Source of the DNA: a virus | UHGV virus genome: UHGV-0178950 | Strand: one strand, 5' to 3' | DNA: 27,946 nucleotides | In this document: piece after piece, positions 8,639-26,402 of the stretch | Position numbering within the stretch: position 1 is the first letter of the stretch | Layout: each line of letters opens with the position of its first letter | Translations under genes and position numbers: made by a program | Notes under the pieces: model-generated | What the model saw: only the letters and a program-made list of their open reading frames with translations | Databases searched by the model: none | Told to the model about the DNA's origin: nothing

Positions 8639-11600
8639 ATGCGATCAATCCAATTTAAACGCACACAAACGGCTGGTAAAAAACCAACGCCGGAACAATT
8701 ATCACAGGGTGAATTGGCTATTAACCTTGCTGATCACGTTCTGTATACCAAAGATAAAAATAACGCAGTAGTTCAAATCTCTGTTTCTCCAGAAAAACAT
8801 GCTGAACTTAACACGAAAGTAGACCAGAATAAAACCAACACTGACCGTGTTATTGCTTCCAACAAACAAGAGGCCGCTAATAATCTGGCTAGTGCTAAAG
8901 CTGAACTGAATCAGACTATTACCACGAAAGATACAGCGACCAATAAGCGCATTGATGCTACCAACACCACTGTTAGTAACTTAACCCAGACAGTTACGGC
9001 AAATAAAACCGATGCCGACACTAAGATCAATAACCTTACGGGGACCGTATCTGCGAATAAGACCGCAATTGAAAGAACCGTTGCCGCAAACAAATCTGAT
9101 GCAGATAGCAAACATGCAGCTTTAACGAAAACGGTCACTGACAATAACACCGCGATTAACAACAAGGTTAATACCACTAACACCAACGTTAGCAACTTAA
9201 CTAAAACTGTTACTGCAAATAAAACCGATGCAGATAACAAAATTTCTAGCTTAACTAGCACGGTTGCAGCTAACAAGACAGCGATCGAAAAGACTGTTTC
9301 CGACAATAAGAAAGACGCGGATACTAAGATTACCAATCTTACTGGCACTGTTAATAGCAACCATACCGCAATTAACAACAAGGTAGACCAGAATAAATCT
9401 TCTACTGATGCCGCAATTGCAGCCGCTAACAAACGAATTGATGGTATTGAAGGTAGCAATGATGCTCTTTACATCAAGAAGAATACCAATACTAAGCATG
9501 GTGGGTATCTGTTAAGCAAGACAGCTAACTATCTGGAAGACCAGACATCACGAGATCTTAACTACTTTGGTGCTTTCCGTACCAATGGTCAAGATGGACT
9601 CATGGATCTAACTCTTAATGTTCCTCATTCTGCCGGTAAAGCGCACGGTCGCGGATTTACTTTCCGTTATGCGTCTGGTGGATCTCGTGTTGAAACCTAT
9701 GGTTTTGATAGAGAAGGACAGAAGAACTTTAGCTATAAGATGTATCACGAAGGTGATAAGCCGACTCCTGGCGAGATTGGCGCATACACCAAAGCCGAAG
9801 TTGATAAGATGTTTGTTAAAAACGTCGTTATGTCTGTTCCCAATTCTAGCGAAAACGTATCTGCATATTTCAAATTGGCAACCGCAACAATTCCACAAAA
9901 CGGGCGTAGTGTGTTTTTCCGTATTCATGGTGGTAATGGTTACAACGTTACGGCATATGATCAGGTTGACGTAGTAGAAATTCTTCTGCGTAGTGGTAAC
10001 GATAGACCTAAAGGTCTTAACGTAATTGCATACCGTAGAAATACAAACAAAGATTTTGAGGTATTTGCTGTCAATACTTCCGGTGATAACTATGATATCT
10101 ACGTGAAATATCAGCGTTATACCGATAACGTTATTGTCGAATATGGGAAATCTGTTTATGTAAGTTTGACGGTTTATGATACGCCGGAAGCCACGTTAAT
10201 TAAACCTTCCGTTGGTGTTATCGGTGGTCGCAACGTAACTCTTTTTAATACTGAAAATAAACGTGGTGTGTTAAGTTTTGATGATAACACACAAAACAGC
10301 TATGACATTGTTCATCTAAGTAATGATAAAGGTACTGGACGGAAATATATTCGTAAATTCCGTAGCAACTATAACGAAATGGTTTGGCATGAAACCGTTC
10401 AGGGTGCTGTATATCGTCTTGCTACTGGTGCTACAGATTCTACAGAAGTTATTAGAATTGATTCTAATAGTGCAATACCGGGTAATTATAAAGGATATGT
10501 AATTACTGGTAAAATGGAATTGCACGGTAGTGGTAATGCGATGACTTTACATCGACAGACTGGTCAAGCTGCATATATGGCGTGGTGGGATCGTCGTGAT
10601 GGTAAAAACCAACGTAGTGGTTATATCGGTCATGCGGATGGTACTAGTGATGGTTTTGTGTGGCGTAATGATGTTGGTGCTAACTCATTTGATTTGGAAG
10701 GTAGTGGACAAGTAAATTTGACTACAGGAAAAACAAAAATTGTATATACCAATGGTCAATATTATTCCGCTAACGCTGATGCATTCCGTATGATTTACGG
10801 TAAGTATGGTGCATTCTGGCGAAATGATGGTGGTAAAGTTTATCTGTTGTCTACTGCCGAAAATGATAGATTTGGTGGTTGGAATACATATCGACCTTTT
10901 ATCTACGATCTTACTTCCGGTAACGTTCAATTAGGTGGTGATGGAAACGAAGATGTATTAACTCTAGAACGCGCAAGCAAGGCCGCTCGATTCTCTGGCA
11001 ACGCTTACATCAAAGGTCAACATTTAACATTTGATGCTGGTGCTGGACAATCCCGCGATTACTTCCGGTTTAACCATTGGGGCGATAGTAATAACGCTCG
11101 CGATAACATCCTACAGATTGAAGACAGTCAGGGTGCACACTTTACCACTGAACGCGCTATGGGTACTGGCAATATCACAGCACGTTTTAAAGGCTTTGTG
11201 CGTGTAGAATCCGGTGAGATTGCCTTTGATGCTAATCGTGGATCTGCGTCTCAATTTACCTTACATACATGGGGTAACGAGCAACGCAAACAGGTTTTTG
11301 AATGTAAGGATGCTACTAGTTATCATTGGTATACCGAACGTACAAACGGTGGAACTGGTCCTATCCTGTTCTCTGTTGCTGGTACATTAAAAACTGCGAG
11401 CAATATACAGGTTGGCGGTGCTGATATTGAGTTTCGTCGCAGTGGTAATAAGCATTTATGGTTTAGAGATCCGAACGGTTTAGAATTAGGTTTGATGTAC
11501 TGCGATGATGCTGGTGTTATCCGCTTCCGTGGTCAGAAACAAGGTCAAACTTGGAAACTTGCTGATAAAATGATTCATCTTGAGGCGGGGACTGTCGGCG

Positions 11601-12241
11601 GGTCTGATAAAGGTTTGATTCGTGGTAATGTTGCTGGTGGTAGCTGGGCTAGCTGGCGTGATCGTTCTGCCGGAATCCTCGTAGACTGTCCGAACTCAAC
11701 CGATTCCGCTCATAACATCTGGAAAGCGACTCATTGGGGAAAATATCATATTGCGGCAATGGGTGTGCATGTTCCTAGTGGTACTATTACCAATGCTTTA
11801 GCTCGCCTAAACGTTCACGACGCCAACTTTGACTTTAACGCTGCGGGTGATTTTAGCGCAGGTCGTAACGGTAGCTTTAACGATGTTTACATTCGCTCTG
11901 ACTCCCGTTTGAAGATTAACAAGGAAGAATTACAGGACGGTGCATTAGAGAAAGTAAACTCACTGAAAGTCTACACCTACGATAAAGTTAAATCTCTTTC
12001 CGATGACACGGTGATTAAACGCGAAGTAGGTATTATTGCTCAGGATCTGGAAAAAGTATTGCCGGAAGCAGTAGGTATTCAATCCACAGAAGATCCAGAA
12101 CAACCGGAAGCAATCAAGACTATTTCTAACTCTGCTGTTAATGCCTTGATTATTAAAGCTATGCAGGAAATGGACGCCAAATATAAAACACAGATCGAAG
12201 CATTACAGAAAGAAATTGCCGAACTGAAAGCAACTAAATAA
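8639..12241 (+). CDS. Long tail fibre with C-terminal intramolecular chaperone (peptidase S74-like) domain
   Basis: 1200 aa; N-terminal KKPTPEQLSQGELAIN box; Thr/Asn/Lys-rich tandem repeats; C-terminal SDSRLKINKEELQ...VYTYDK...GIIAQDLEKVLPEAV resembles the self-cleaving chaperone of L-shaped fibres and endosialidases. Confidence 0.8.
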   Translation: MRSIQFKRTQTAGKKPTPEQLSQGELAINLADHVLYTKDKNNAVVQISVSPEKHAELNTKVDQNKTNTDRVIASNKQEAANNLASAKAELNQTITTKDTATNKRIDATNTTVSNLTQTVTANKTDADTKINNLTGTVSANKTAIERTVAANKSDADSKHAALTKTVTDNNTAINNKVNTTNTNVSNLTKTVTANKTDADNKISSLTSTVAANKTAIEKTVSDNKKDADTKITNLTGTVNSNHTAINNKVDQNKSSTDAAIAAANKRIDGIEGSNDALYIKKNTNTKHGGYLLSKTANYLEDQTSRDLNYFGAFRTNGQDGLMDLTLNVPHSAGKAHGRGFTFRYASGGSRVETYGFDREGQKNFSYKMYHEGDKPTPGEIGAYTKAEVDKMFVKNVVMSVPNSSENVSAYFKLATATIPQNGRSVFFRIHGGNGYNVTAYDQVDVVEILLRSGNDRPKGLNVIAYRRNTNKDFEVFAVNTSGDNYDIYVKYQRYTDNVIVEYGKSVYVSLTVYDTPEATLIKPSVGVIGGRNVTLFNTENKRGVLSFDDNTQNSYDIVHLSNDKGTGRKYIRKFRSNYNEMVWHETVQGAVYRLATGATDSTEVIRIDSNSAIPGNYKGYVITGKMELHGSGNAMTLHRQTGQAAYMAWWDRRDGKNQRSGYIGHADGTSDGFVWRNDVGANSFDLEGSGQVNLTTGKTKIVYTNGQYYSANADAFRMIYGKYGAFWRNDGGKVYLLSTAENDRFGGWNTYRPFIYDLTSGNVQLGGDGNEDVLTLERASKAARFSGNAYIKGQHLTFDAGAGQSRDYFRFNHWGDSNNARDNILQIEDSQGAHFTTERAMGTGNITARFKGFVRVESGEIAFDANRGSASQFTLHTWGNEQRKQVFECKDATSYHWYTERTNGGTGPILFSVAGTLKTASNIQVGGADIEFRRSGNKHLWFRDPNGLELGLMYCDDAGVIRFRGQKQGQTWKLADKMIHLEAGTVGGSDKGLIRGNVAGGSWASWRDRSAGILVDCPNSTDSAHNIWKATHWGKYHIAAMGVHVPSGTITNALARLNVHDANFDFNAAGDFSAGRNGSFNDVYIRSDSRLKINKEELQDGALEKVNSLKVYTYDKVKSLSDDTVIKREVGIIAQDLEKVLPEAVGIQSTEDPEQPEAIKTISNSAVNALIIKAMQEMDAKYKTQIEALQKEIAELKATK
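8978..9409 (+). repeat. Two tandem copies of a 216-nt (72-aa) coding repeat inside the fibre gene
   Basis: NLTQTVTANKTDADTKINNLTGTVSANKTAIERTV... repeated as NLTKTVTANKTDADNKISSLTSTVAANKTAIEKTV..., period 216 nt (8978 to 9194). Confidence 0.7.
11896..12241 (+). other. Predicted autoproteolytic chaperone domain of the fibre; cleavage predicted at the Ser-Asp of SDSRLK
   Basis: SDxRLK-type motif at 11896-11913 followed by about 110 residues with a coiled-coil tail. Confidence 0.55.
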
Positions 12242-12248
12242 TAAAAGT

Positions 12249-12267
12249 CGGGGGACTAGTTCCCCCG
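12249..12267 (+). terminator. Hairpin after the fibre gene
   Basis: CGGGGGA-ctagt-TCCCCCG; weak T-tract, so terminator status uncertain. Confidence 0.4.
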
Positions 12268-12298
12268 TTATAAACAATTTTAATTAAGGGGTAATTCT

Positions 12299-12775
12299 AT
12301 GTCTCAGCAATTTAAAGATATTTTTACTGGTGGTCTGGTAAGTATGTTCTATCACGCCGATACCACTAACACCGATCTTGCACATGAAAGCTATGAAGAA
12401 ATTAAAGAGTGTGCTGGTTTTCCTGAAACTGGTATCGAGCGCGGCACTGTAGAAGTTAAATCCTTCTCTTCTCAGTACAACCGTAAGCTGGTAGGTAAAC
12501 TGAATGTTCCTGATCTGACTCTGACCGTTAACTACATTCCAGGTGATGCTACTCACGCTAAACTGGATAAGGCTGCCGAAGATGGTACGCGTATTCAGAT
12601 TAAGATTGAATATTATGTTGATGCTGGTAAGCAGACTGGTATTCGCACCGCTTTCAACGGCTTTATCTCTAAAGCTGCTATGCAGGGTGGCGACGAAGAA
12701 GTTGTAACCAAAGAATATACTTTTGCGGTTGATGGTGCTCCGATCAAACAGGAAGTGTTTACCACTGGCGGATGA
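12299..12775 (+). CDS. Abundant virion protein, candidate major tail tube protein, 158 aa
   Basis: Strong optimal codon bias as in the capsid domain; AAGGGGT Shine-Dalgarno; sits upstream of the G/T chaperones and tape measure; paralogous to the N-terminal half of the 7727 gene; a decoration protein is an alternative. Confidence 0.55.
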   Translation: MSQQFKDIFTGGLVSMFYHADTTNTDLAHESYEEIKECAGFPETGIERGTVEVKSFSSQYNRKLVGKLNVPDLTLTVNYIPGDATHAKLDKAAEDGTRIQIKIEYYVDAGKQTGIRTAFNGFISKAAMQGGDEEVVTKEYTFAVDGAPIKQEVFTTGG

Positions 12776-12901
12776 ACTAACGAAGAACTTCCTTTACCAG
12801 AATCGGAACCACTGCCGGAACATGAAGCGGTGGTGATTCCAGAAGTAGAAGAAGTTACGGCGAAAGCCACAGCAAAACGAGGCCGCAAGGCTAAGAATTA
12901 A
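12776..12901 (+). other. In-frame 41-codon extension after the major tail TGA stop; candidate readthrough product
   Basis: Open in frame 0 after TGA at 12773-12775; encodes TNEELPLPESEPLPEHEAVVIPEVEEVTAKATAKRGRKAKN; shares an identical 20-mer (gttacggcgaaagccacagc) with 6911-6930. Confidence 0.3.
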
Positions 12902-12906
12902 TTTTA

Positions 12907-12935
12907 AGCCCTGCCTTAATGGTGGGGCTTTTTTA
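12907..12935 (+). terminator. Rho-independent terminator after the major tail gene, same stem as 6964-6991
   Basis: AGCCCTGCC-ttaat-GGTGGGGCT followed by TTTTTT. Confidence 0.7.
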
Positions 12936-12949
12936 TTGGAGTAATCAAA

Positions 12950-13456
12950 ATGGCAAATGTCGTTAAAGTTCCTGGCTGGATCGGGTCATCTGCTGTATCG
13001 GTGACGGGTAAGCGATGGATGAAAGAAGCATTAACAGCTTTAAAAGTTCCGGCTCCGCGTAATATGTCGGCAATGGCTGGTCGTGGTATGGATACGGTTG
13101 TAGCTACTGCATCGTGGTCTACTTCATTGGGTAATAACTGGGGTGTAACTGCTTCAAACTATCCTGTTTCCGGTATGCAAAGCAAAGGATCTATGGAGAA
13201 CCCCGAAAACGTGGGCGTAGGGCGTCTGGTTGGCGTTATCGTTGGTCAATTCAATGGCGGTACTCCTACTATGGCTGTATATCTCCAGAACGGTAGAGCG
13301 GGGAATATAACCGTTAATTTGGGTGGTGCTGCTGTCACTGTTCCTTATAACAGTATGCAAAGTGGTTTTCATTACTATTGGTTAAGCAATCCTCCGGCTG
13401 CTTTCCTAACAAATATTAAGAAGACTGGCACTAAGCAGACTTTGAAAATCTCTTAA
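12950..13456 (+). CDS. Hypothetical tail-associated protein, 168 aa, Gly/Ser/Thr-rich
   Basis: ORF with GGAG Shine-Dalgarno; ordinary codon usage; lies between the tube candidate and the chaperones. Confidence 0.5.
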   Translation: MANVVKVPGWIGSSAVSVTGKRWMKEALTALKVPAPRNMSAMAGRGMDTVVATASWSTSLGNNWGVTASNYPVSGMQSKGSMENPENVGVGRLVGVIVGQFNGGTPTMAVYLQNGRAGNITVNLGGAAVTVPYNSMQSGFHYYWLSNPPAAFLTNIKKTGTKQTLKIS

Positions 13457-13501
13457 ATTCTAAATAAATACAGCGTAATCACTATTAATGAGGAAACAAT
13501 A

Positions 13502-13810
13502 ATGAATCTGAATGAAATGCTGAAAGCTCTTTCTCCGAAACGTGAATCTTTAACCCTCGGCGGATTTACGTTCTATGCTCGCCCTATGTCGGTGCAAGAA
13601 TTTAATGAACATGTTTTCAATACTGATAAAAAAGACCGCGATGAACGCTCTATTCTTCGTTGTATTGAAGATGAAGACGGTAAGCCAGTATTTGAATCTA
13701 TTGAACAAGTTAAGGCACTGTATACTAGCGTCCGCAGCGAATTAATCGGCTTAGTTGCTCAAGCATCATTGATGAAAGATGCGGCGGTAATTGAAAACGA
13801 GGTAAAGTAA
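13502..13810 (+). CDS. Tail assembly chaperone, G-like
   Basis: 102 aa acidic protein directly upstream of an overlapping -1 frame ORF and the tape measure gene; GAGGAAA Shine-Dalgarno. Confidence 0.6.
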   Translation: MNLNEMLKALSPKRESLTLGGFTFYARPMSVQEFNEHVFNTDKKDRDERSILRCIEDEDGKPVFESIEQVKALYTSVRSELIGLVAQASLMKDAAVIENEVK

Positions 13811-14193
13811 ACCCGCTCTTGAATTTTTATTTTCGGCAAATGATGCGTCGGGGCTTGAGTAAAGATGAGATGGATAATATGCCAATTACGCTATTTTGGG
13901 CGTTGCATATATTCGATACATATCTTGAACCACAAAGCCCCCTATATCAAGATGCGCGACATGCACAGTCGATGTATTACATGCACGTTACATCTCCTAA
14001 CATGACTCGTGAATGGTTGAATAAAATCAATGTTAACCAATTCCGAATGATTAAGGACGACAAGCAATTTAAAACGCAAGAAGAAATAAAAGAAATTGCT
14101 CGTAAGAAAGAGGAAGAACGTAACTCTGCTTTGGTTGATAGTTATTTCGACGCTTCATTATTACAAAAGCTCAAGAGCGGTCAATTGGGGTAA
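13795..14193 (+). CDS. T-like extension of the tail assembly chaperone, probably expressed as a G-T fusion by -1 frameshifting
   Basis: Frame -1 relative to the G-like ORF, open from 13795, overlapping its last four codons; no convincing Shine-Dalgarno for independent initiation at TTG 13819. Confidence 0.45.
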   Translation, partial: KRGKVNPLLNFYFRQMMRRGLSKDEMDNMPITLFWALHIFDTYLEPQSPLYQDARHAQSMYYMHVTSPNMTREWLNKINVNQFRMIKDDKQFKTQEEIKEIARKKEEERNSALVDSYFDASLLQKLKSGQLG

Positions 14194-14196
14194 TTT

Positions 14197-16629
14197 ATGA
14201 CAAAACATATAGTAACAATAGAAGGGGATAATAAAGGTCTAAGGAGAAGTACCAATGAAGCCGCCGACCTTCTCGATAGTTTGTCTGAAAAGGCAAGTGG
14301 TATTGATTTTGGTGGTGGCTTATCTGGTCTGACTGGATCTCTTCGTGGGATCGCTGGCTCTGCTGGTTTGGCTGCTGGTGGTATCGGCTTAGTTGCGACC
14401 GCAGTGGTTGCAGCCGCTAAAGCTGGCGCGGAATACGTTAAACAATATTCAGAAGTATCTAAGGCGACCGGACTCTCGATTGAATCCCTTCAAAGACTGG
14501 AAAAGGAATTTTCTGGTACTGGCCTAACAGTTGAAAAATTCGGTGATATCAACAAAGACACCTTAGATAAGATGGGTGATGCATGGGCTAACGGTGGTGG
14601 TATTGCTGATGACTTAGAATCGGTTGGCCTTAAGTTAGAAAACTATGCTCACTTCATGACTGATCCGCAAGGTGGTATGAAAGCGGCGATCCAAGTGTTC
14701 TATGACATGAAGAAAGCCGGAAAATCAATGGCTGAAATCAAGTTCATGATGGAATCTTTAGCCAGTGATTCAAGTCATATGACCAGCCAGCTTGAGAAAT
14801 ATAATAGTGCTCAAGAGGCGATGATCGCTATTCAGAATCAATCTGTTAACGTCACCGAAGAAAACGCTAAAAAATATGATAAATTTTCTCAAAATATCAA
14901 TAAGCTGGAAAATAACCTGAAAGGTGTCGGCATGACCATTTCTGGTCCTTTGGTTGATAGCTTAAACTGGTTATTTGACTGGTTTAATATTGATTGGGAA
15001 AAGAGTTCTCTATTCAGGGCATTAGATCGACTGAATAAAGAAGGCAAGACCGCAACTGGTGGTATTCTTAACGCCAACCATAAAGACGCTCAAAAGATTA
15101 TTGACAAGTACAATAAAGAAAAGCGTTGGAATAATCTAGCAGATTGGGAAAAGGCCGCGATCCGTGGTGCTGGTGTCGATCCTCGTACTGCTGGCTTTGA
15201 TGTAGAAGGATTTAAGAAACGTTTTGGTGGGTCTTATAAGAAAAATGGTGCTCTGATTGTCGTAGATGCTGGTGAACATCTGACACGCAAGGCAGATCCT
15301 AACACTGATTTAACTCTACCAAATAAACCAGTAAGACCAGAATCATTGGGTAAATCTGGCAACGAGAAGAAAGCCGAGGAAGAAGCACGCAAGAAAGCGG
15401 AAGAGGCAGCTAAAAAGGCTAAGGAAGCCGCAGAAAAAGCACAGAAAGAACGTGAGGATGCAATCAAGCGTCTGAATGCACTTGATGTTAAATTGCAAGG
15501 GCAAGTTGCAGCGTCTATTGCTTCTCAAAACAAGCAGTTAGAAGCCAGCTTGAAAGATTTGGATACTGCTTTAGATCTGGGCTTAATCTCTCAACAAGAC
15601 GCAGCCGCGAAACGCCAATCCTTAATCGATCAGAATACTGAAAACGTATACAAAATGGTCTTAGGTGCTGATCCTGTTGATGCGCTGAATGCTTTAACAC
15701 AATTGCAACAAATCAGGGACAATGAGTTAGAAAGCCATAAACGGTTACTTGATGGTAAGGCTATCTCCTACGATGAATATATGCGTCGTGTGAATGATAC
15801 CAATCAGAATTATAGTCAAATTGGCAATGCTTTACAGGGAATGGATGGTTTTAAAACCAATCAATTAACCAGCGGATTTGATTATCAAGACTCAAATAAT
15901 CCGTTTGCTAAATTTAATGCAATCGATAAAGAGAAATCGGAAGCCGAACAAGATTATAAGACCGATAAACTACTCAAGATTGATGGGATCACCGATCCGG
16001 CTAAACGGATGGAAGCATTAGAAAAACTCAATGAAAACCATCAAAAACGGATGGCTGCAATTGAAAAGAAATATGCTGATGCTCGCCAGTCAATAGCCGA
16101 TGATATGTATGGCGGTTTTGCTGCTGCAATGACTCTCTTCGGGCAGGAAAACACTAAAGCTATGCAGATGGCTTTCAATGCTCATAAAGCATTCTCTATC
16201 GGACAAGCGACGGTGAACATGTGGACGGCTGCTACCGATGCATGGAACGATCCGACCAACGTCACCACAGGTCAAAAAATTGCTGCTGCTGCATTGGCTG
16301 TTTCTCAGAACATGGGGAACATCGCAAACATCAAGTCTACTAACGTTAGCGGTATGGCTCATGATGGTATTGATAACATCCCTCGTGAGGGTACATGGTT
16401 GCTTGATAAGGGTGAACGAGTAGTTGATCAGCGTACTAACGGTGATTTGAAAGACTTCTTATCTGCTCAAAAATCAGGCGGTGGTAACTCTCAGCCGATT
16501 GAAGTTAATGCGCCTTTGAACATTAACGGCAATGTTAATAGCTCAGACAAGATGGTTATGGATGCTATCAAACGTCACGCTAAGTTAGTTGCTCAGGCGG
16601 TAGAAGACGCACAGCGCCGTAAGATGTAA
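14197..16629 (+). CDS. Tape measure protein
   Basis: 810 aa; Gly/Ala-rich hydrophobic segment near the N-terminus, long Lys/Glu/Ala coiled-coil stretches, position after the chaperone pair. Confidence 0.8.
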   Translation: MTKHIVTIEGDNKGLRRSTNEAADLLDSLSEKASGIDFGGGLSGLTGSLRGIAGSAGLAAGGIGLVATAVVAAAKAGAEYVKQYSEVSKATGLSIESLQRLEKEFSGTGLTVEKFGDINKDTLDKMGDAWANGGGIADDLESVGLKLENYAHFMTDPQGGMKAAIQVFYDMKKAGKSMAEIKFMMESLASDSSHMTSQLEKYNSAQEAMIAIQNQSVNVTEENAKKYDKFSQNINKLENNLKGVGMTISGPLVDSLNWLFDWFNIDWEKSSLFRALDRLNKEGKTATGGILNANHKDAQKIIDKYNKEKRWNNLADWEKAAIRGAGVDPRTAGFDVEGFKKRFGGSYKKNGALIVVDAGEHLTRKADPNTDLTLPNKPVRPESLGKSGNEKKAEEEARKKAEEAAKKAKEAAEKAQKEREDAIKRLNALDVKLQGQVAASIASQNKQLEASLKDLDTALDLGLISQQDAAAKRQSLIDQNTENVYKMVLGADPVDALNALTQLQQIRDNELESHKRLLDGKAISYDEYMRRVNDTNQNYSQIGNALQGMDGFKTNQLTSGFDYQDSNNPFAKFNAIDKEKSEAEQDYKTDKLLKIDGITDPAKRMEALEKLNENHQKRMAAIEKKYADARQSIADDMYGGFAAAMTLFGQENTKAMQMAFNAHKAFSIGQATVNMWTAATDAWNDPTNVTTGQKIAAAALAVSQNMGNIANIKSTNVSGMAHDGIDNIPREGTWLLDKGERVVDQRTNGDLKDFLSAQKSGGGNSQPIEVNAPLNINGNVNSSDKMVMDAIKRHAKLVAQAVEDAQRRKM

Positions 16630-16630
16630 T

Positions 16631-16680
16631 TAAAAGCCCCCATAGTGATAAATAATCATAAAACTATGGGGGCTTTTTCT
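16631..16680 (+). terminator. Long-stem hairpin with T-tract after the tape measure gene; 3' arm also carries the GGGGG Shine-Dalgarno of the next gene
   Basis: AGCCCCCATAGT-(16 nt loop)-ACTATGGGGGCT followed by TTTTT. Confidence 0.5.
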
Positions 16681-17241
16681 ATGTTCAAATCCAAGAATAT
16701 TAAAATCACAGATTTTACTCTTAAATCAAAACAACCTTTCTTCAAGGCGCAATCTATCTCCGGTAAGTTCCAGCGTCGCTTTACTGGCATCCATTTTTAC
16801 GAAGCAGAATTTACCGCGAATTACATGGCTCAGGATATTAACGAAGTAAAAGAATTTGTAGCACGTCACCTTTTTGGTCGTCCTTTTAGTGTGCCACTGT
16901 CTTACTTTTCAAAATATACAGGTGATGTACGCCAGATGGTAACGGCTGCTGCTGGTACTGCTCGCGGTGGGCGTAAGGTGAGAATCTCCAACTTCACCGG
17001 AACACTGAAAGCGGGAACTGTCATCCAGTTTGAGAACCACAAGAAAATCTACACGATCACCGAAGACGTGAAATCAGGTGGTGAAATGAAACTCTTCCCT
17101 AACTTGCGTCAAAACGTCCTGGCTGGTGAGGTGATCAAGTATCAGAACGTAGAAGGTGAATTTGTTCTCAAAACTGAAAATATCGATTGGAAGATCGCCC
17201 AGATTGGCAAGATGAAATTCGAATTAGTGGAGAATGTATAA
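16681..17241 (+). CDS. Minor tail protein (distal tail / M-like candidate)
   Basis: Start set at ATG 16681 downstream of GGGGGC; the ORF-track start at 16645 is a GTG inside the hairpin; function from position after the tape measure. Confidence 0.5.
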   Translation: MFKSKNIKITDFTLKSKQPFFKAQSISGKFQRRFTGIHFYEAEFTANYMAQDINEVKEFVARHLFGRPFSVPLSYFSKYTGDVRQMVTAAAGTARGGRKVRISNFTGTLKAGTVIQFENHKKIYTITEDVKSGGEMKLFPNLRQNVLAGEVIKYQNVEGEFVLKTENIDWKIAQIGKMKFELVENV

Positions 17242-17894
17242 TGGCAACTATTCAGGAATCATTCAGCAAACTATGCACTAATCTTGACTTCATCGAGGTC
17301 TACAACGACCAGACAGGGCAGAACGTGTCTAGATTGACGCTACCGCAGCTTTTCTCTACTGGATCGATGTTTCACATTATCGAAGTGATTACCGCGTCAG
17401 GGGATGTTCTACGGCTTACAGATGGGTATTTCGATTTGGACTATAACGGTTTTACATATCTCGCAACGGGTGATTTTCTTCAAATCTCATCGAATACCGA
17501 AGAGAAGGAGATCAACAACAACGGGATCAACGTAACTGTTTCTAACGTTCGCGAAGAATACATTACCCTGATTCGTAACAAGCAATTCGATAAATCAGAT
17601 GTGAAAATCGAGATGGTTTTCCTTAACCCCAACACGGGCAAAGTTGAAACCACTTACCCTGTTTTCCGTGGGGTAGTCGATTCCATCGGGATTAACATCG
17701 AACATGAAGATGATGAGTGTAAAAACGAATCAGAATTTCAGCTTAATAGTATCTGGGAAGTTCTAGATAAAAACGCTCGTAGTCATGCCTCCGATGGTAT
17801 CCACCGTTCCTATGTTGGAAACGAGAACGATCTATTCTTCTCAAGGGCGGGTCGCTGGCAATCAGAAAGCAAGTGGCATTCATCGAAGAAATAA
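17241..17894 (+). CDS. Minor tail protein (L-like candidate)
   Basis: Start set at the ATG at 17241 that overlaps the upstream stop (ATAATG), not the ORF-track start 17187; function from position. Confidence 0.5.
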   Translation: MATIQESFSKLCTNLDFIEVYNDQTGQNVSRLTLPQLFSTGSMFHIIEVITASGDVLRLTDGYFDLDYNGFTYLATGDFLQISSNTEEKEINNNGINVTVSNVREEYITLIRNKQFDKSDVKIEMVFLNPNTGKVETTYPVFRGVVDSIGINIEHEDDECKNESEFQLNSIWEVLDKNARSHASDGIHRSYVGNENDLFFSRAGRWQSESKWHSSKK

Positions 17895-17940
17895 TCCCTT
17901 CTCCCTAAGCCTAGTAAATAACAGCATGGAGGTATTCATC

Positions 17941-18360
17941 ATGCTAAAAACTAGGCTTATCACCGATTACATCAATTCTTTAATAGGTCAGGAGTTCGTT
18001 CAGGGTGAGAATGATTGCAATTTAATTGCATGTAAGATCATCGATATTCTCGCTGGCACTGACCTATATAATTCTCTTTATAAAAAATATTCAACTAAAG
18101 AAGAAGGCTTGAAAATCTGCAAAGAATTAAGCGGGTATTCAAATATCCTTCAACCAATTAAGAAACATTTCAAATTAGTCACTGATGATTTACAGGACGG
18201 CGATTTACTGGTCACAGCCCACAAATTAGGAAACCGTAATTATTATTCCGTAGTTCCTCATTATTCCGGTTATGGCCTCGTTGAAGAAGATGGTATCTGG
18301 ATGACCATTCCTGTTTCAGACATTGACTATGAACAAGTTTATAGATTCGGGGGTGAATAA
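17941..18360 (+). CDS. Tail assembly protein with a possible NlpC/P60-like cysteine peptidase core (K-like)
   Basis: Start set at ATG 17941, with GGAGGT 7 nt upstream; GENDCNLIACK Cys motif and downstream His; stop overlaps the next start (TAATG). Confidence 0.45.
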   Translation: MLKTRLITDYINSLIGQEFVQGENDCNLIACKIIDILAGTDLYNSLYKKYSTKEEGLKICKELSGYSNILQPIKKHFKLVTDDLQDGDLLVTAHKLGNRNYYSVVPHYSGYGLVEEDGIWMTIPVSDIDYEQVYRFGGE

Positions 18361-21300
18361 TGGGATTTGAAATATTGGTAGGCGCGGTTATTGCTGGTGC
18401 GTCTGCTGGGATGGCTGCTGCTGCAACATTTTCTGTTATGACCGCAGTCGCTATCGGTATGGCTGCTGGTGCAATGACCTTGATCGCTTCCACTGTAGGC
18501 GCACCAAAAACACCTAAAGTACAAAGCCCAGATAATGCGGTGACACTAGGAACATCAAACGATCCGAAAGCGGTGATACCAGTCGTTTTCGGTACTACCC
18601 GCACTGGCACAAACTGTGTTTACAAAGCAGTTTCTAAGCAAGAAAACAATAAGCTAGTGCAAATCTTCTCTGTAGCCGAGGGTGAAATCGACCATTACAA
18701 AGCACTCTTTATTGATAATAAAAATGTTCTTGTTGGTAAGAACATGACGATCCGTGATGGTATTCTCGATAAGGGCAACATTAAAGAAGAATATCGTAAA
18801 GTATTAGAAGTCGAGTTCCGCACGGGCAAGAATCCTAACACCGCTTTGTCGCTGGCAAAACGTCATTTAGGCTCAGACTGGACCGACGCTTTCAAGGGTA
18901 ACGGCATTGCAACCATGTGTATTGTGTTACGTCGTGATGACAAATCTCTTGCTGCTGGTGTTGATATTCTCCAGCCAAATAGCCAGGTAGCAGTAGACGT
19001 TTGCGGCCTTAAAATCCGTAACCTTGAAACCAATGCTATTGAGGCTAGCACTAACGGCGTGGATCAGATTTTCCACTACCTAACAAATGAAAAATATGGC
19101 TTATCCGTACCAATTGAAAACATTAACGTTGATTCATTCCTGAAAGTACGTAAACAAGTACGCCAGATGGATCTACATTCAAACGGTGCATGTGATCCGA
19201 ACGCCAGCTTTAAAGAAAACTTGACTAATCTTATGCAGACTTTCGGCGGGGTGATGTTCGAATCCTTTGGACGTATTACGCTGAAACTGGATGCTCCTGA
19301 TATTGTTAAGCATACCTTCAATGAAGACAATATCATGATGGGTAAGGTATCACTGAAAACAGGTGGCACTAACGGTTATTTCAATACCATTAACGCGATG
19401 TATCAAGAACCATCAATTGACTATTCAGAGCAAATGCTACGTTATCCGGCTGATGCTGAAAACGATGCTACTGTTCGCGCAGATGGTCGAATTATTGCTA
19501 AGGATGTAGAATATCGTTTCGTTAAGTCTAAAGATCAGATTGATAAACTTGCGAGCATTGAGCGAAATAAATCTCGTATCACTCAGGTTATCAGCTTTAT
19601 GACTACTGACGCATTCACTGCCGAAGTTTGGGACGTTATCAGCGTAACCTATGATGAATTGAAGCTGAATAATTCCTTATGGCGTATTACTGCAATTGAT
19701 CGCTCGATTGATTCTGGTATTGCTGGGATGATGACTATCACCGCCACAGAATATAATTCTCAGGTTTATACTGACCTGAACTATGCGGCAACTCCAGACA
19801 ATAGACCAAGTTTACCGGATTCAATGACAGTACAGAAGCCTACTAATTTCAGAATTAAGGCAACTGGTGAGACGATTTACGGTAAAAACGTTACTTTGAC
19901 ATGGGATGCACCGGAAGATTTTAACCGTTATGGTTTCCAGATTGATTACCGTGTAAGCGGATCACCTAACTGGATTAAGCTGGGACAGACTTCACAGCAA
20001 ATTTTCAGTGTCAATGCACTGGCAAAAGATCGTTCCTACGATTACCGAGTTTGTGCTTTCGGTATCATCGCGCGATCCGATTGGGTAGAACTGGTTAACC
20101 AGAATCCTACCGTTACCTATGAATTGCCGACTCCGGTTATTCGAATCAAAAATCAGGGTAGCACGCCAGGAACTTTCGAAGGTAATGATCTGATTATCGA
20201 ATGGGAAAACCAGCAACAATTAGATGTGATGATCAACGGTGAAACTAACAAGTTTAGTGACCTGTTTGAAGCATACATTATCAAGGTGACTAACAAGGCT
20301 GGTAAGTCTATTCAGTACCGTACCCGCGATCCTGAATCATGGACTTATACGCTTGATATGAACCAGTTTAACGGCCTTTCGCGTCAACTTACGGTAGAAG
20401 TATCAGCTAAGGGCTATAACAACTCAGAGAGCGCCCCAGCGCGTTTAGTGGCTATCAACCCACAACATAAGCCAATGAAAGGTTTTAGTGCGCGTGGTGG
20501 CTTTAATACTGCGTTTGTTAGCTGGGCGGATGACGTAGAACATGACTATGCAGGGTCAATCATCCAGTATGCAACCGACAACACTTTCTCAGATGCAAGG
20601 GCAGTAAGCACGAATAGTGTTAGCCATACTTCCTTTGATATTGCTGACGGTGATTATTATATCCGTGGTGCTCACTACGATATTTTCGGTATGGATGATG
20701 CTGTTTGGTCTGAACCGTATTTCATGCAAATGAAGTCTACGATTAGTTGGGACGATCAGGACAAAGAAGCACTGGAAGACCTGATCGGTTTACAAGATCG
20801 CTTAGATGAAACTATCGCGGATGCTATTAAGCAAGCTGGCGCTAATGCCGATGCTAAAATTGATGCAATGCATAAGCAAATCACTACCGAGACGGGTAAA
20901 ACTGTTCAAGCCTCAGCCGATACTCTCAAGAGTCTGATTGCTTCTGGTGATAAGGCAAGTTCAACTAAGATTGATCAGGTTAAAGCTGAACTGAAAGGCG
21001 ATATCACCAAAGAAGTTAGTGCATCTGCTACTAGCCTGAAACAAGCTATTGCTACCAGTGAAGCAGCAAGCGCAAGTAAGATTGACCAAGTTCGGGTAGA
21101 AATGGATGGCAAGATTGCTGGTGTGAATCAGGAAGCAGATGTAAAAATCGATGCTTTGAAGGGAACCATTAACAGCAAATATAATCTGGCGGTTAATGCA
21201 GATGGTCGCGTGGCTGGTATTCACATGAGCGCAACCAACGATCCGGCACAACCGACGAGAATCATCTTTAATGCTGATAAAATCGCGGTAGCTCCACAGG

Positions 21301-24411: not shown

Positions 24412-24684
24412 CTATGATTTATTTTCTTGTTCTATGAAAATCTTTCTCACCTCATCAGAATAAATGTCTAGTGATTCCTCATAACATTTTCTGTATTCAT
24501 CGTAATTACTGGTGGTCTTTTGACATAGCAATTTCAATGTCTTATGTGCTCCATCAATGAAAGCATCTTCTCTATAGGTTAGCGGTCTACGCATTTCTTG
24601 GTCTACGGTTGCCAATGCCAAGCAAGAATTCATAGATAAAATCAAACCTAAAATCTTAATCATCTTCATTAGCTTAAATTCCAA
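24412..24684 (-). CDS. Small secreted or lipoprotein-like protein, about 85-90 aa
   Basis: N-terminal signal peptide MKMIKILGLILSMNSCLALA with a possible AxA cleavage or atypical lipobox; two Cys in the mature part; overlaps the recombinase 3' end by 11 nt. Confidence 0.55.
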   Translation of the reverse strand: MEFKLMKMIKILGLILSMNSCLALATVDQEMRRPLTYREDAFIDGAHKTLKLLCQKTTSNYDEYRKCYEESLDIYSDEVRKIFIEQENKS

Positions 24685-26353
24685 ATTCTTGTAATGGACC
24701 TGGTATTTCTTCTTCTGGTTTCCAGTTCTTATCTGTCAGCATGTCTAAACATGGATGCAGAACAAGCCCGTTACTCTCCAGAATCTGCCTATCATTGATA
24801 GTCTTCAAATCAACGAAGATCCGGCCTTTCCTCGGTCCTCTTGAATTTTCTATTACAACTCTCTGGGTCTTGCCATCGATGTATTCCAGTACAAACAAGT
24901 TTTTGTACTTGTCAATCCTGCTACACCCGATCCGTTTTAGAGCTTGCTTAATCTTAAACCGGACCTTAATGCGATCCTCGTTGTAAACATCTTCTAAATC
25001 AAATTCTGCGAGCTTCTCCCAGCCTTGAGAGTCAACAGAATACATTTCCTCTTCTGCCATCTTAAGTTGATTGTAGAGTGTTTCACGCTCGCTATTGAGG
25101 GTAGTAATCTGATCGGCTAGCTCCTTCGTTGCTCCTGTCATAGCAGAAAGGGTAATCAGGTTATCAATCTTGCGTGATATTTCATCAATCTGTACTTTCA
25201 AAGCCGGAACCGGATTAGCCTTATCTTCAGCAATCCAGATTTTATCAGCCAGCAATTGCAATACAGCTTTCTCTAATTGGTCGCCGCGAAAACTCCAGTT
25301 TGTATGCACACATTCAATACGACTAGAGCGCATTGCATCGCATGAATAACGATATTGGTTAGGCCGTCTGTTTGTTCCTTTCACCTTAACCATAGCGGAA
25401 CCGCAATGTTCACATTTCAGCAGATTAACACCACTAAGCAGGGGGATCGGTTTAGCTTCTTCTTTGTCTCCATAGTTACATGCTCTAACACCAATGCTTT
25501 TCTTAAGGTGATAAAACTCAGCGTCATCTAGCACACGAGGGTAATAATCCTTTAACTCATACTTAACGCCATCTACAGAGATTTCCTTGATACCAATCAA
25601 AGCGCGGGTATGGAACAACCTTTCAATCATTGCTCGTGACCAGTTTGAATGCCTCTTGTGACTTGCGGCTGGTGGTGGTGTATATGTCGCGTTAAGGTGA
25701 TCCAGTATCTCGGCGGTAGACCGTCCATTCCTGCGTAATTCCACAACCTCCTGAACAATAGGGAAGAAGACCGGATCGGGACACACATAACCGGAAGTGG
25801 TATCAGTCCACCACATATTCTTTCCAACTTCCTCGATTGCCACAGCCGGATTTTGTGGATTTTCTTGATGAGCTTTAATCTTAATCAGTGCGCTTGAGTT
25901 AGTACGATTGCGCTTAGTCTGGCTTTCCTCATTACCACGGATGAATAAAAGGATGGAGAACATCAGGTCCATCGGGTTAGCGGTAACAGTATCAAGCGAG
26001 TAGATCTTGTTATCCATGCCAGTAACAATGGTTATCCCCCTACGGATGATTGAAAGGAATAACTCCTGCGCACTGACAATATCGGCACGGGATAAACGGT
26101 CCAAGTTTTCGATGAATAGCCAGCTACCAACAGGAACGGATCTACCTATTGCATCAAGGAAACGAGATAGCGCCCCTGTTTTGGAGTTAGCACCCTTAAA
26201 CGCAGATACACCCAGATCCTGATAATCATTTACCAGTTCAAGGTCATACTTTACCGCAATCTCTCTAGCCATCCTGATTTGTCGTTCATAACTCGAACCA
26301 TCATTCTGACGCATAGACGAGAAGCGAATATACGAATACAGTTTAGTTTTCAT
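24674..26353 (-). CDS. Large serine recombinase (integrase/resolvase superfamily)
   Basis: N-terminal catalytic domain YSYIRFSSMRQ...SYERQ...ENLDRLSR, zinc-ribbon-like CEHCGSAM...YRYSC, C-terminal coiled coil; start set at the ATG encoding MKTKLYSYIR, the ORF track extends to a TTG at 26368. Confidence 0.85.
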   Translation of the reverse strand: MKTKLYSYIRFSSMRQNDGSSYERQIRMAREIAVKYDLELVNDYQDLGVSAFKGANSKTGALSRFLDAIGRSVPVGSWLFIENLDRLSRADIVSAQELFLSIIRRGITIVTGMDNKIYSLDTVTANPMDLMFSILLFIRGNEESQTKRNRTNSSALIKIKAHQENPQNPAVAIEEVGKNMWWTDTTSGYVCPDPVFFPIVQEVVELRRNGRSTAEILDHLNATYTPPPAASHKRHSNWSRAMIERLFHTRALIGIKEISVDGVKYELKDYYPRVLDDAEFYHLKKSIGVRACNYGDKEEAKPIPLLSGVNLLKCEHCGSAMVKVKGTNRRPNQYRYSCDAMRSSRIECVHTNWSFRGDQLEKAVLQLLADKIWIAEDKANPVPALKVQIDEISRKIDNLITLSAMTGATKELADQITTLNSERETLYNQLKMAEEEMYSVDSQGWEKLAEFDLEDVYNEDRIKVRFKIKQALKRIGCSRIDKYKNLFVLEYIDGKTQRVVIENSRGPRKGRIFVDLKTINDRQILESNGLVLHPCLDMLTDKNWKPEEEIPGPLQEFGI

Positions 26354-26359
26354 ACCATT

Positions 26360-26402
26360 TCCAAACAAAAACGCCCCTACCGCGTATTATAACGATAGGG
26401 GC
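26360..26402 (-). terminator. Hairpin plus T-rich run on the minus strand between the secreted-protein gene and the recombinase; loop contains TATAAT
   Basis: GCCCCTA...TAGGGGC stem; minus-strand downstream GTTTTTGTTTGG. Confidence 0.4.

Follow-up and report, generated by a model that had tools for sequence, protein, structure and literature searches.

A gp37-type fibre gene between head and tail genes

The UHGV virus genome UHGV-0178950 (27,946 nucleotides [nt] in full, the whole stretch analyzed here and called the window below) corresponds to the late region of an Escherichia coli prophage, in which a long tail fibre gene, accompanied by genes for a candidate adaptor and a candidate adhesin, lies between the head and tail genes. 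Among complete genomes, that of E. coli strain PI7 comes closest (96% identity). The head part runs in the order large terminase, W-like joining protein, portal, protease-capsid fusion, FII-like connector, and a protein of 140 to 156 amino acids (aa); the middle holds a 277-aa protein, the 1200-aa fibre, a 158-aa tube protein, a 168-aa protein, and two assembly chaperones; and the end comprises the tape measure, distal tail protein, hub proteins, a J-like tip protein carrying a lambda-type receptor-binding domain, and an M15 endolysin. All structural open reading frames (ORFs) of the window are intact. The tail genes form a non-contractile, lambda-like (siphophage-type) tail module, and family scans of the window proteins found no sheath, gp34, or gp35. 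An earlier reading, made from the sequence alone (the sequence-only reading), had placed a tail fibre with a self-cleaving C-terminal chaperone at 8639-12241, between head and tail genes. One uninterrupted ORF of 1200 aa does occupy this interval, its identity as a tail fibre is borne out by gp37 homology together with a C-terminal S74 chaperone, and its position downstream of the terminase, portal, protease-capsid fusion, and connector genes and upstream of the tube, chaperone, tape measure, and tip genes is conserved across the prophage family. The features discussed below are as follows.

7727..8560, + strand: 277-aa candidate fibre adaptor, with a tail-tube-fold N-domain (aa 1-161), a glycine-rich linker, and a gp36-like C terminus (aa 184-277)
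8639..12241, + strand: fibre gene, homologue of gp37 (distal long tail fibre), a single ORF of 1200 aa
8639..8794, + strand: N-terminal anchor of the fibre, aa 1-52 (IQFKRT..KPTP..GELAINLADHVLYTKD), a gp37-type gp36-joining segment, 47% identical to RB49 gp37 residues 4-54
8789..9484, + strand: alpha-helical rod, aa 51-282, a single helix in AlphaFold, absent from RB49 gp37
8978..9409, + strand: two diverged 72-aa (216-nt) units, residues 114-185 and 186-257, within the rod
9506..11896, + strand: gp37-type fibre body and tip, aa 290-1086, with a Gp34_trimer domain; identity to RB49 and sister prophages varies along it as a mosaic
10376..10776 (401 nt), + strand: tract 100% identical to RB49 gene 37 by exact-match scan, a putative recombination patch
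11897..12241, + strand: intramolecular chaperone (Peptidase_S74, PF13884), aa 1087-1200 plus the stop codon
12299..12775, + strand: probable 158-aa tail tube protein (phrog_158, 1.3e-21), between the fibre and adhesin genes
12950..13456, + strand: 168-aa Gp38-type adhesin candidate (Gp38_N, phrog_1121), two genes downstream of the fibre

The identity of the fibre as a homologue of gp37 from RB49-type T4-like phages (Krischvirus) is well supported. In BLASTP searches, residues 290-1197 were 75% identical to RB49 gp37 (979 aa) over 915 aa, and residues 1-51 gave a separate match to gp37 residues 4-54, so that the homology covers body and tip and, by sequence, the N-terminal segment that joins gp36. 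The protein also matches phrog_1699 (long tail fiber distal subunit, 1.3e-149), and from position 9506 onward the DNA is about 80% identical to Krischvirus gene 37. A Gp34_trimer domain (Pfam PF21446) spans residues 645-756 (E value 1.9e-37), the body matches T4 gp34 in the PDB (4uxe, 2.5e-13), and the last strand of the tip reads ..GRNGSFNDVYIR. The gp34-gp35-gp36-gp37 context of contractile-tailed phages was not found in the window, where the sole gp36-like part is the C-terminal segment of the 277-aa protein. A lambda Stf-type side tail fibre was considered and is not supported, given the gene's position upstream of the tube gene, the gp37-type N terminus, and the lack of any match to Tfa or to the Stf N-domain in profile searches of the fibre and the window.

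The identity profile of the fibre against RB49 gp37 is mosaic. The 401-nt tract at 10376-10776 is flanked by DNA only 76 to 84% identical to RB49; it is found in 12 Krischvirus records at 89.5 to 100% identity, with 100% in RB49 only, and is carried by only 3 of 5426 complete E. coli genomes. Over the protein segment that it encodes, five sister prophages are only 42 to 51% identical to the window. From these comparisons we infer that the tract is a recent conversion patch, passed from an RB49-like phage to this prophage lineage.

The sequence-only reading had also assigned the C-terminal 115 or so residues, with their SDSRLK signature, to a chaperone domain of about 12 kDa that is cut off after folding. 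The domain search agreed: Peptidase_S74 (PF13884) was detected at residues 1087-1145 (E value 8.8e-14; 52 bits against a cut-off of 22), and SDSRLK, residues 1087-1092, marks the exact start of the domain. The S-D-x-x-x-K pattern of the cleavage site is present as S1087-D-S-R-L-K1092, of which S1087 and K1092 correspond to the catalytic serine and lysine known from work on endosialidases. Autocleavage is predicted at DVYIR^SDSRLK, between R1086 and S1087, and would turn a precursor of 131.8 kDa into a mature fibre of 119.2 kDa with release of a 114-aa piece of 12.7 kDa (computed masses), close to the size first proposed. The best PDB match of the C terminus is S16 gp37 (6F45_A), and the fibre site SDSRLK aligns with SDRRIKK of S16 gp37 and with SDGRLKI of the fPS phages. 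In these T2-like phages, cleavage takes place at DVYIR^SDGRLKI (PMC7917993), and the corresponding motif in the window is DVYIR^SDSRLKI.

Candidate adaptor and adhesin of the fibre

The 277-aa protein encoded immediately before the fibre combines features of a tail tube and of a fibre joint. Its N-domain is a paralogue of the tail tube protein, having both the tail-tube fold and similarity to the cognate tube protein of the same phage. Its last 70 to 94 residues align end to end with the C terminus of RB49 gp36 (BLASTP E value 1e-5; hhalign probability 90%, E value 1.4e-6), the two proteins ending in ..KPTPSEIGAVAKTDRIDFGEY and ..KPTPADVGAVPLNAVIDFGTF; the 277-aa protein terminates in DRIDFGEY. 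It is gp36 that holds the gp37 N terminus in T-even fibres. No Pfam match was found for the 277-aa protein, nor any similarity to RB49 gp35. Its family comprises 82 homologues, all from Enterobacterales, all without a Pfam domain and named "hypothetical"; in the long members, which reach 465 to 482 aa, or 698 aa in the record of Escherichia phage DCP80, the tube domain is followed by additional fibre modules. The linker at aa 163-210 is strongly conserved, with invariant G163, G169, D170, G172, G174, G176, G182, D185, and G191-N192-R193, yet its modelled structure has very low confidence, and folding may have to await oligomer assembly.

The 168-aa protein matches Gp38_N (PF21721) at residues 6-43 (E value 3.9e-15; 56 bits against a cut-off of 25) and phrog_1121, tail fiber adhesin (1.7e-34). 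Its N terminus is 51 to 71% identical to the Gp38 N termini of many T4-like phages, with W10 and W23 invariant. Over its full length the protein is related to the short Gp38-like proteins of Shiga toxin (Stx) phages and of PEi20 and Kosakonia T4-like phages. The polyglycine or glycine-rich motifs and the hypervariable head of T2/S16 Gp38 are not present in the 168-aa protein, and a phmmer search of it against PDB sequences returned nothing meaningful. Among 12 sampled loci (the window and 11 relatives), the adhesin gene was found at all seven loci with RB49-type fibres and at none of the five others. Docking of the adhesin on the J-like tip protein was also considered and was dropped, since the Stx-phage fibre has no similarity to that protein.

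Taken together, these observations suggest, with a probability that we put at roughly 0.65, that an E. coli prophage with a siphophage-type tail has taken over a T-even-type distal fibre (gp37) as a side fibre, mounted on an adaptor and capped by an adhesin. Three fibre chains would trimerize, nucleated by the C-terminal S74 chaperone, which would then release itself between R1086 and S1087 to leave a 119-kDa mature chain ending in DVYIR. Onto the tip thus exposed, the 168-aa Gp38-type adhesin would fit as a cap, held by its N-terminal attachment domain. At the other end, the 52 N-terminal residues of the fibre would plug onto the gp36-like C terminus of the 277-aa protein, whose tube-paralogue N-domain would form a ring in or on the tail, and a coiled-coil rod of about 34 nm (aa 51-282) would space the gp37 body from the tail. 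If the adaptor ring is hexameric, it would offer two trimeric sockets.

Several points weigh against this proposal. The adaptor C terminus is modelled with low confidence (predicted local distance difference test [pLDDT] 29-65), its similarity to gp36 is partly due to a KPTP..GA motif that is common at fibre joints, and its C-terminal 120 aa gave weak PHROG matches (E value about 1e-3). Domains, homologies, mosaicism, gene order, and co-occurrence were observed; we infer the autocleavage, both docking steps (that of the fibre on the adaptor and that of the adhesin on the fibre), the fibre count per virion, the site of the adaptor ring along the tail, and the receptor. The adhesin head is nearly invariant in seven prophages, even in one where the fibre tip differs (L007), which is unusual for a receptor-binding part, and the co-occurrence of adhesin and fibre type is confounded by relatedness, because the adhesin-positive loci are also closer prophage relatives. 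Two loci (L005 and L011) carry S74 fibres without the adhesin gene, so that the cap is not obligatory for such fibres. Finally, some prophage copies are in decay, with a frameshifted terminase in PI7.

An alternative for the 277-aa protein is that it serves as a tail terminator, a neck ring, or a second structural tube protein, with the fibre anchored elsewhere, for instance at a collar as in Ur-lambda and T5. Its gene sits at the position of lambda Z and U, the tube fold is common to terminators and distal tail proteins, its C-terminal model is poor, and the side fibres of lambda and T5 attach via collars (PMC12617516). We regard this explanation as unlikely.

Alternatively, the fibre may be a self-sufficient receptor-binding protein like T5 pb1, and the 168-aa protein a transient assembly factor, a binder of some other part, or a leftover. 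The S74 fibres of L005 and L011 fit this explanation, as do the tube gene that separates the adhesin gene from the fibre gene, the combination of an almost invariant adhesin head with a variable fibre tip, and the lack of a solved-structure match for the 168-aa protein beyond the N-domain profile. However, the fibre ends in DVYIR^SD as does gp37 of Gp38-bearing T2-like phages, Gp38_N is an attachment domain for that surface, the adhesin gene occurs with the RB49-type fibres as described, and Stx phages likewise pair an adhesin homologue with an S74 fibre. Furthermore, RB49 itself encodes its g38 homologue at a locus distant from gene 37 (PMC3157838), which provides a precedent for non-adjacent adhesin and fibre genes. 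A fibre that needs no cap is improbable in our view, and the adhesin-capped fibre is preferred.

Variation of the locus, the prophage, and the rod

The 277-aa gene and the 5' end of the fibre gene are carried by 53 complete E. coli genomes, in most of which the nucleotide match stops at fibre codon 52 and the distal fibre is swapped. In an alignment of 12 fibres from this locus (the window's and those of 11 relatives), residues 1-52 are conserved at 73 to 88% in all 11 relatives, whereas distally the fibres are exchanged altogether: some have an RB49-type body but another tip, others are of the "pyocin knob" type, either with S74 or lacking it, and one fibre is split over two genes. Adaptor, fibre or fibres, and tube follow one another in this order not only in E. 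coli but also in a prophage of Proteus mirabilis and on a metagenomic contig; in the related siphophage R4C, the tube protein directly follows the joining proteins. Individual loci showed further rearrangements. The two-gene fibre (L006, 6092-9952) has a small ORF in between, another locus (L010, 10651-11557) has three extra small ORFs 3' of the fibre, and in a third (L012, 9899-11046) an IS3 element lies beside a shortened fibre and the remaining tail genes are missing.

A combination of ..DFG(E/T/L)(Y/F/E) at the C terminus of one protein and FKR..GEL.IN..D..YTKD at the N terminus of its partner occurs four times: between RB49 gp36 and gp37, between the 698-aa and 745-aa proteins of DCP80, between the Proteus adaptor and a 198-aa rod protein, and between that rod and a 675-aa fibre. 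In the Proteus prophage (L017), the rod is a separate 198-aa protein (8882-9478) with an N-terminal anchor and a C-terminal DFGTF, and its gene is followed by that of a gp37-like fibre with its own anchor (9489-11516). With the Proteus rod as a separate link, the window fibre looks like a fusion of two links. We tentatively extend the proposal, at somewhat less than even odds, to a family of enterobacterial prophages: a duplicated tube protein fused to a gp36-type plug would form a ring that accepts interchangeable fibre links by a universal joint. In such a plug-and-socket joint, a C-terminal ..DFGxF would meet an N-terminal FKR..GELAIN..YTKD, with links that would be separate in Proteus (adaptor, rod, and gp37 body) and partly fused in the window (rod plus gp37 body). 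If this is true, lytic myoviruses and temperate siphophages could freely exchange distal fibres, whole or in patches, owing to a joint shared with T-even phages. Judging by the position of the gene, the fibres might be mounted head-proximally.

The DCP80 record (L014, PQ671644.1, "Escherichia phage DCP80," 141 kb) is classified as a T4-like Gaprivervirus, and its positions 1-18560 are a siphophage-type head and tail module homologous to the prophage; the record may be a chimeric assembly. By capsid protein, DCP80 (45%) and siphophage R4C (32%) are the nearest phages.

In PI7, the element is about 35 kb long, lies inside the antitoxin gene hicB, and carries a large serine recombinase. The two halves of hicB are at 4496-4804 and 39937-40056 of the PI7 locus (L001), indicating that hicB is the attachment site, and in the window a 564-aa serine recombinase is encoded at the prophage end (24674-26368, - strand). 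The whole prophage is present in only 18 complete E. coli genomes. Some part of window positions 1-25000 is matched by 3595 of the 5426 genomes, nearly all at 95% identity or more, and some segment of the window must therefore be very widely shared. The same interval was searched by megablast against 50,697 phage records. Among the matches listed, the sole phage nucleotide match was that of the 3' 2.7 kb of the fibre gene to Krischvirus gene 37 at about 80%, and no isolated phage represents the prophage; one further phage record, outside the listed matches, has a short match of at least 99%. The large terminase, an intact 634-aa ORF in the window (778-2682), has a frameshift and an internal stop in PI7 (12748-14774), indicating that some prophage copies are decaying.

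It might be argued from the frameshifted PI7 terminase, and from the lack of an isolated phage among the listed matches, that the fibre cassette belongs to a defective prophage and is assembled into no particle. This is very unlikely, however, given that the structural ORFs of the window are all intact, that the family is widespread with conserved synteny and protein sequences, and that the recent RB49 patch entered in frame without disruption, as is consistent with a gene in use.

The rod (aa 51-282) was modelled by AlphaFold from the single sequence as one continuous helix (pLDDT 90-97), its hydrophobic periodicity peaks at 3.6 residues, and it probably forms a trimeric coiled coil with a length of about 34 nm. 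It comprises some 230 to 238 aa and stands in place of RB49 gp37 residues 55-70 (about 16 residues). The sequence-only reading had described a 216-nt tandem repeat at 8978-9409 that could change copy number by slippage and so vary fibre length. Two 72-aa units do exist and, from the continuous helix and its 3.6-residue periodicity, belong to the rod, but they are the diverged copies of an old duplication rather than a tandem repeat prone to slippage. They share 64% aa identity and 62 to 66% DNA identity, with 72, 76, and 36% identity at codon positions 1, 2, and 3 and a longest exact in-register run of 17 nt. Tandem Repeats Finder reported no 216-nt array, either in the whole window or at 8600-12300 with a score of 30, and the repeat search resolved three sub-repeats spaced 54, 87, and 75 nt (18, 29, and 25 aa), which sum to 216. 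What sets the rods of relatives apart is other in-frame indels (-47 aa in one relative; -14, -18, and +4 aa in two others), and neither a single unit nor three units were seen in any of the six relatives sampled that have an RB49-type fibre. Thus, although the two units are real and fibres range from 1153 to 1203 aa among relatives, frequent copy-number change between isolates can scarcely be upheld, since the copies are too diverged for slippage, synonymous sites are saturated, and relatives show many substitutions and other indels with no gain or loss of a unit.

Relation to known systems and neighbouring tail genes

The S74 chaperone, the gp37 body, and the logic of a chaperone followed by an adhesin are already known (T2, S16, and T5). 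Judged from sequence, fold, and synteny, what appears to be new is the tube-derived adaptor with its gp36-type plug, the resulting gene position, and the organization as a chain of links. RB49-type gp37 (Krischvirus) shares with the window fibre the N-terminal gp36-joining segment, the Gp34_trimer-type domain, the tip, the S74 chaperone, and the identical 401-nt tract; in contrast, the window virus has a non-contractile lambda-like tail, a rod within the fibre, and a fibre gene between head and tail genes. That T-even and temperate phages trade fibre segments is a decades-old observation, and mosaicism of tail fibres, involving lambda stf/tfa and T4 37/38 as well as P2 H, was reportedly described by Montag (1989), Haggard-Ljungquist (1992), and Sandmeier (1994). 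As in that classical mosaicism, fibre segments have been exchanged here between unrelated lytic and temperate coliphages; the differences are that the perfect 401-nt patch would mark a very recent event and that a gp36-type plug and an adhesin appear to have been co-opted too.

The T2/S16 tip, in which gp37 with a C-terminal chaperone is capped by the Gp38 adhesin (Dunne 2018, as summarized in PMC7917993), resembles the window system in its S74 chaperone of 113 to 114 aa, the DVYIR^SD.RLKI motif, and the Gp38-N-domain partner. It differs in that the window adhesin has only 168 aa, lacks the polyglycine motifs and hypervariable head, is nearly invariant, and is encoded by a non-adjacent gene. 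O104:H4-type Stx phages (75/02 Stx and P13374) likewise have a fibre end ..GSFNDVQIR^SD followed by an S74 chaperone, and in Stx phage 75/02 the gene directly after the S74 fibre encodes a homologue of the 168-aa protein that is 45% identical over its full length; their fibre, however, is short and collagen-like (494 aa), their virion type is another, and their adhesin gene is adjacent. Ur-lambda, with its Stf collar, and T5, with a p132 collar that carries pb1, use a 12-mer collar around the junction of tube and distal tail protein (PMC12617516), and T5 pb1 also has an S74 chaperone (PMC12617516, PMC7289586). These phages share with the window the presence of trimeric side fibres besides a central J-type tip, but their fibre genes lie in the tail-tip region, whereas the candidate anchor of the window is a tube paralogue encoded before the tube gene.

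If the adaptor is what we propose, it would represent a third mode of mounting side fibres on a siphophage tail. Tail fibres determine host range, and the T-even distal fibre kit (joint, fibre, self-cleaving chaperone, and tip adhesin) would then be complete on an unrelated phage, a temperate siphophage, where it would function or at least be retained, with the identical 401-nt patch pointing to recent DNA exchange with a lytic RB49-like phage. Confirmation of the adaptor and its joint would explain how fibre modules can be transplanted between phages of different tail types and would offer a simple handle for host-range engineering. The same exchange carries a warning, as resident prophages may donate receptor-binding sequences to, or receive them from, therapeutic T4-like phages.

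Downstream of the fibre, the 158-aa protein has weak Pfam matches to lambda-like tail tube proteins, and its homologues are named "phage tail tube protein" in RefSeq. It is probably the major tube protein because its gene has the canonical position and is followed by a hairpin and T-run near-identical to those of the capsid gene. These GC-rich hairpins with T-runs (AGCCCTGCC..GGTGGGGCT TTTTT) lie at 6964-6985 after the capsid gene and at 12906-12930 after the tube gene, and they look like a shared terminator or an mRNA-stabilizing element behind the two most abundant structural genes. The reading frame remains open for 42 codons past the TGA stop of the tube gene (TNEELPLPESEPLPEHEAVVIPEVEEVTAKATAKRGRKAKN; window 12773-12901), and it is also open in five relatives, with length differences that stay in frame (-6 and -15 nt); this could be a gene remnant or reflect stop-codon readthrough that yields a longer tube protein. 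Two small ORFs precede the tape measure gene, at 13502-13810 (with a weak match to an assembly chaperone) and 13819-14193 (with a TTG start), a pair that resembles the usual G/GT pair produced by a programmed frameshift.

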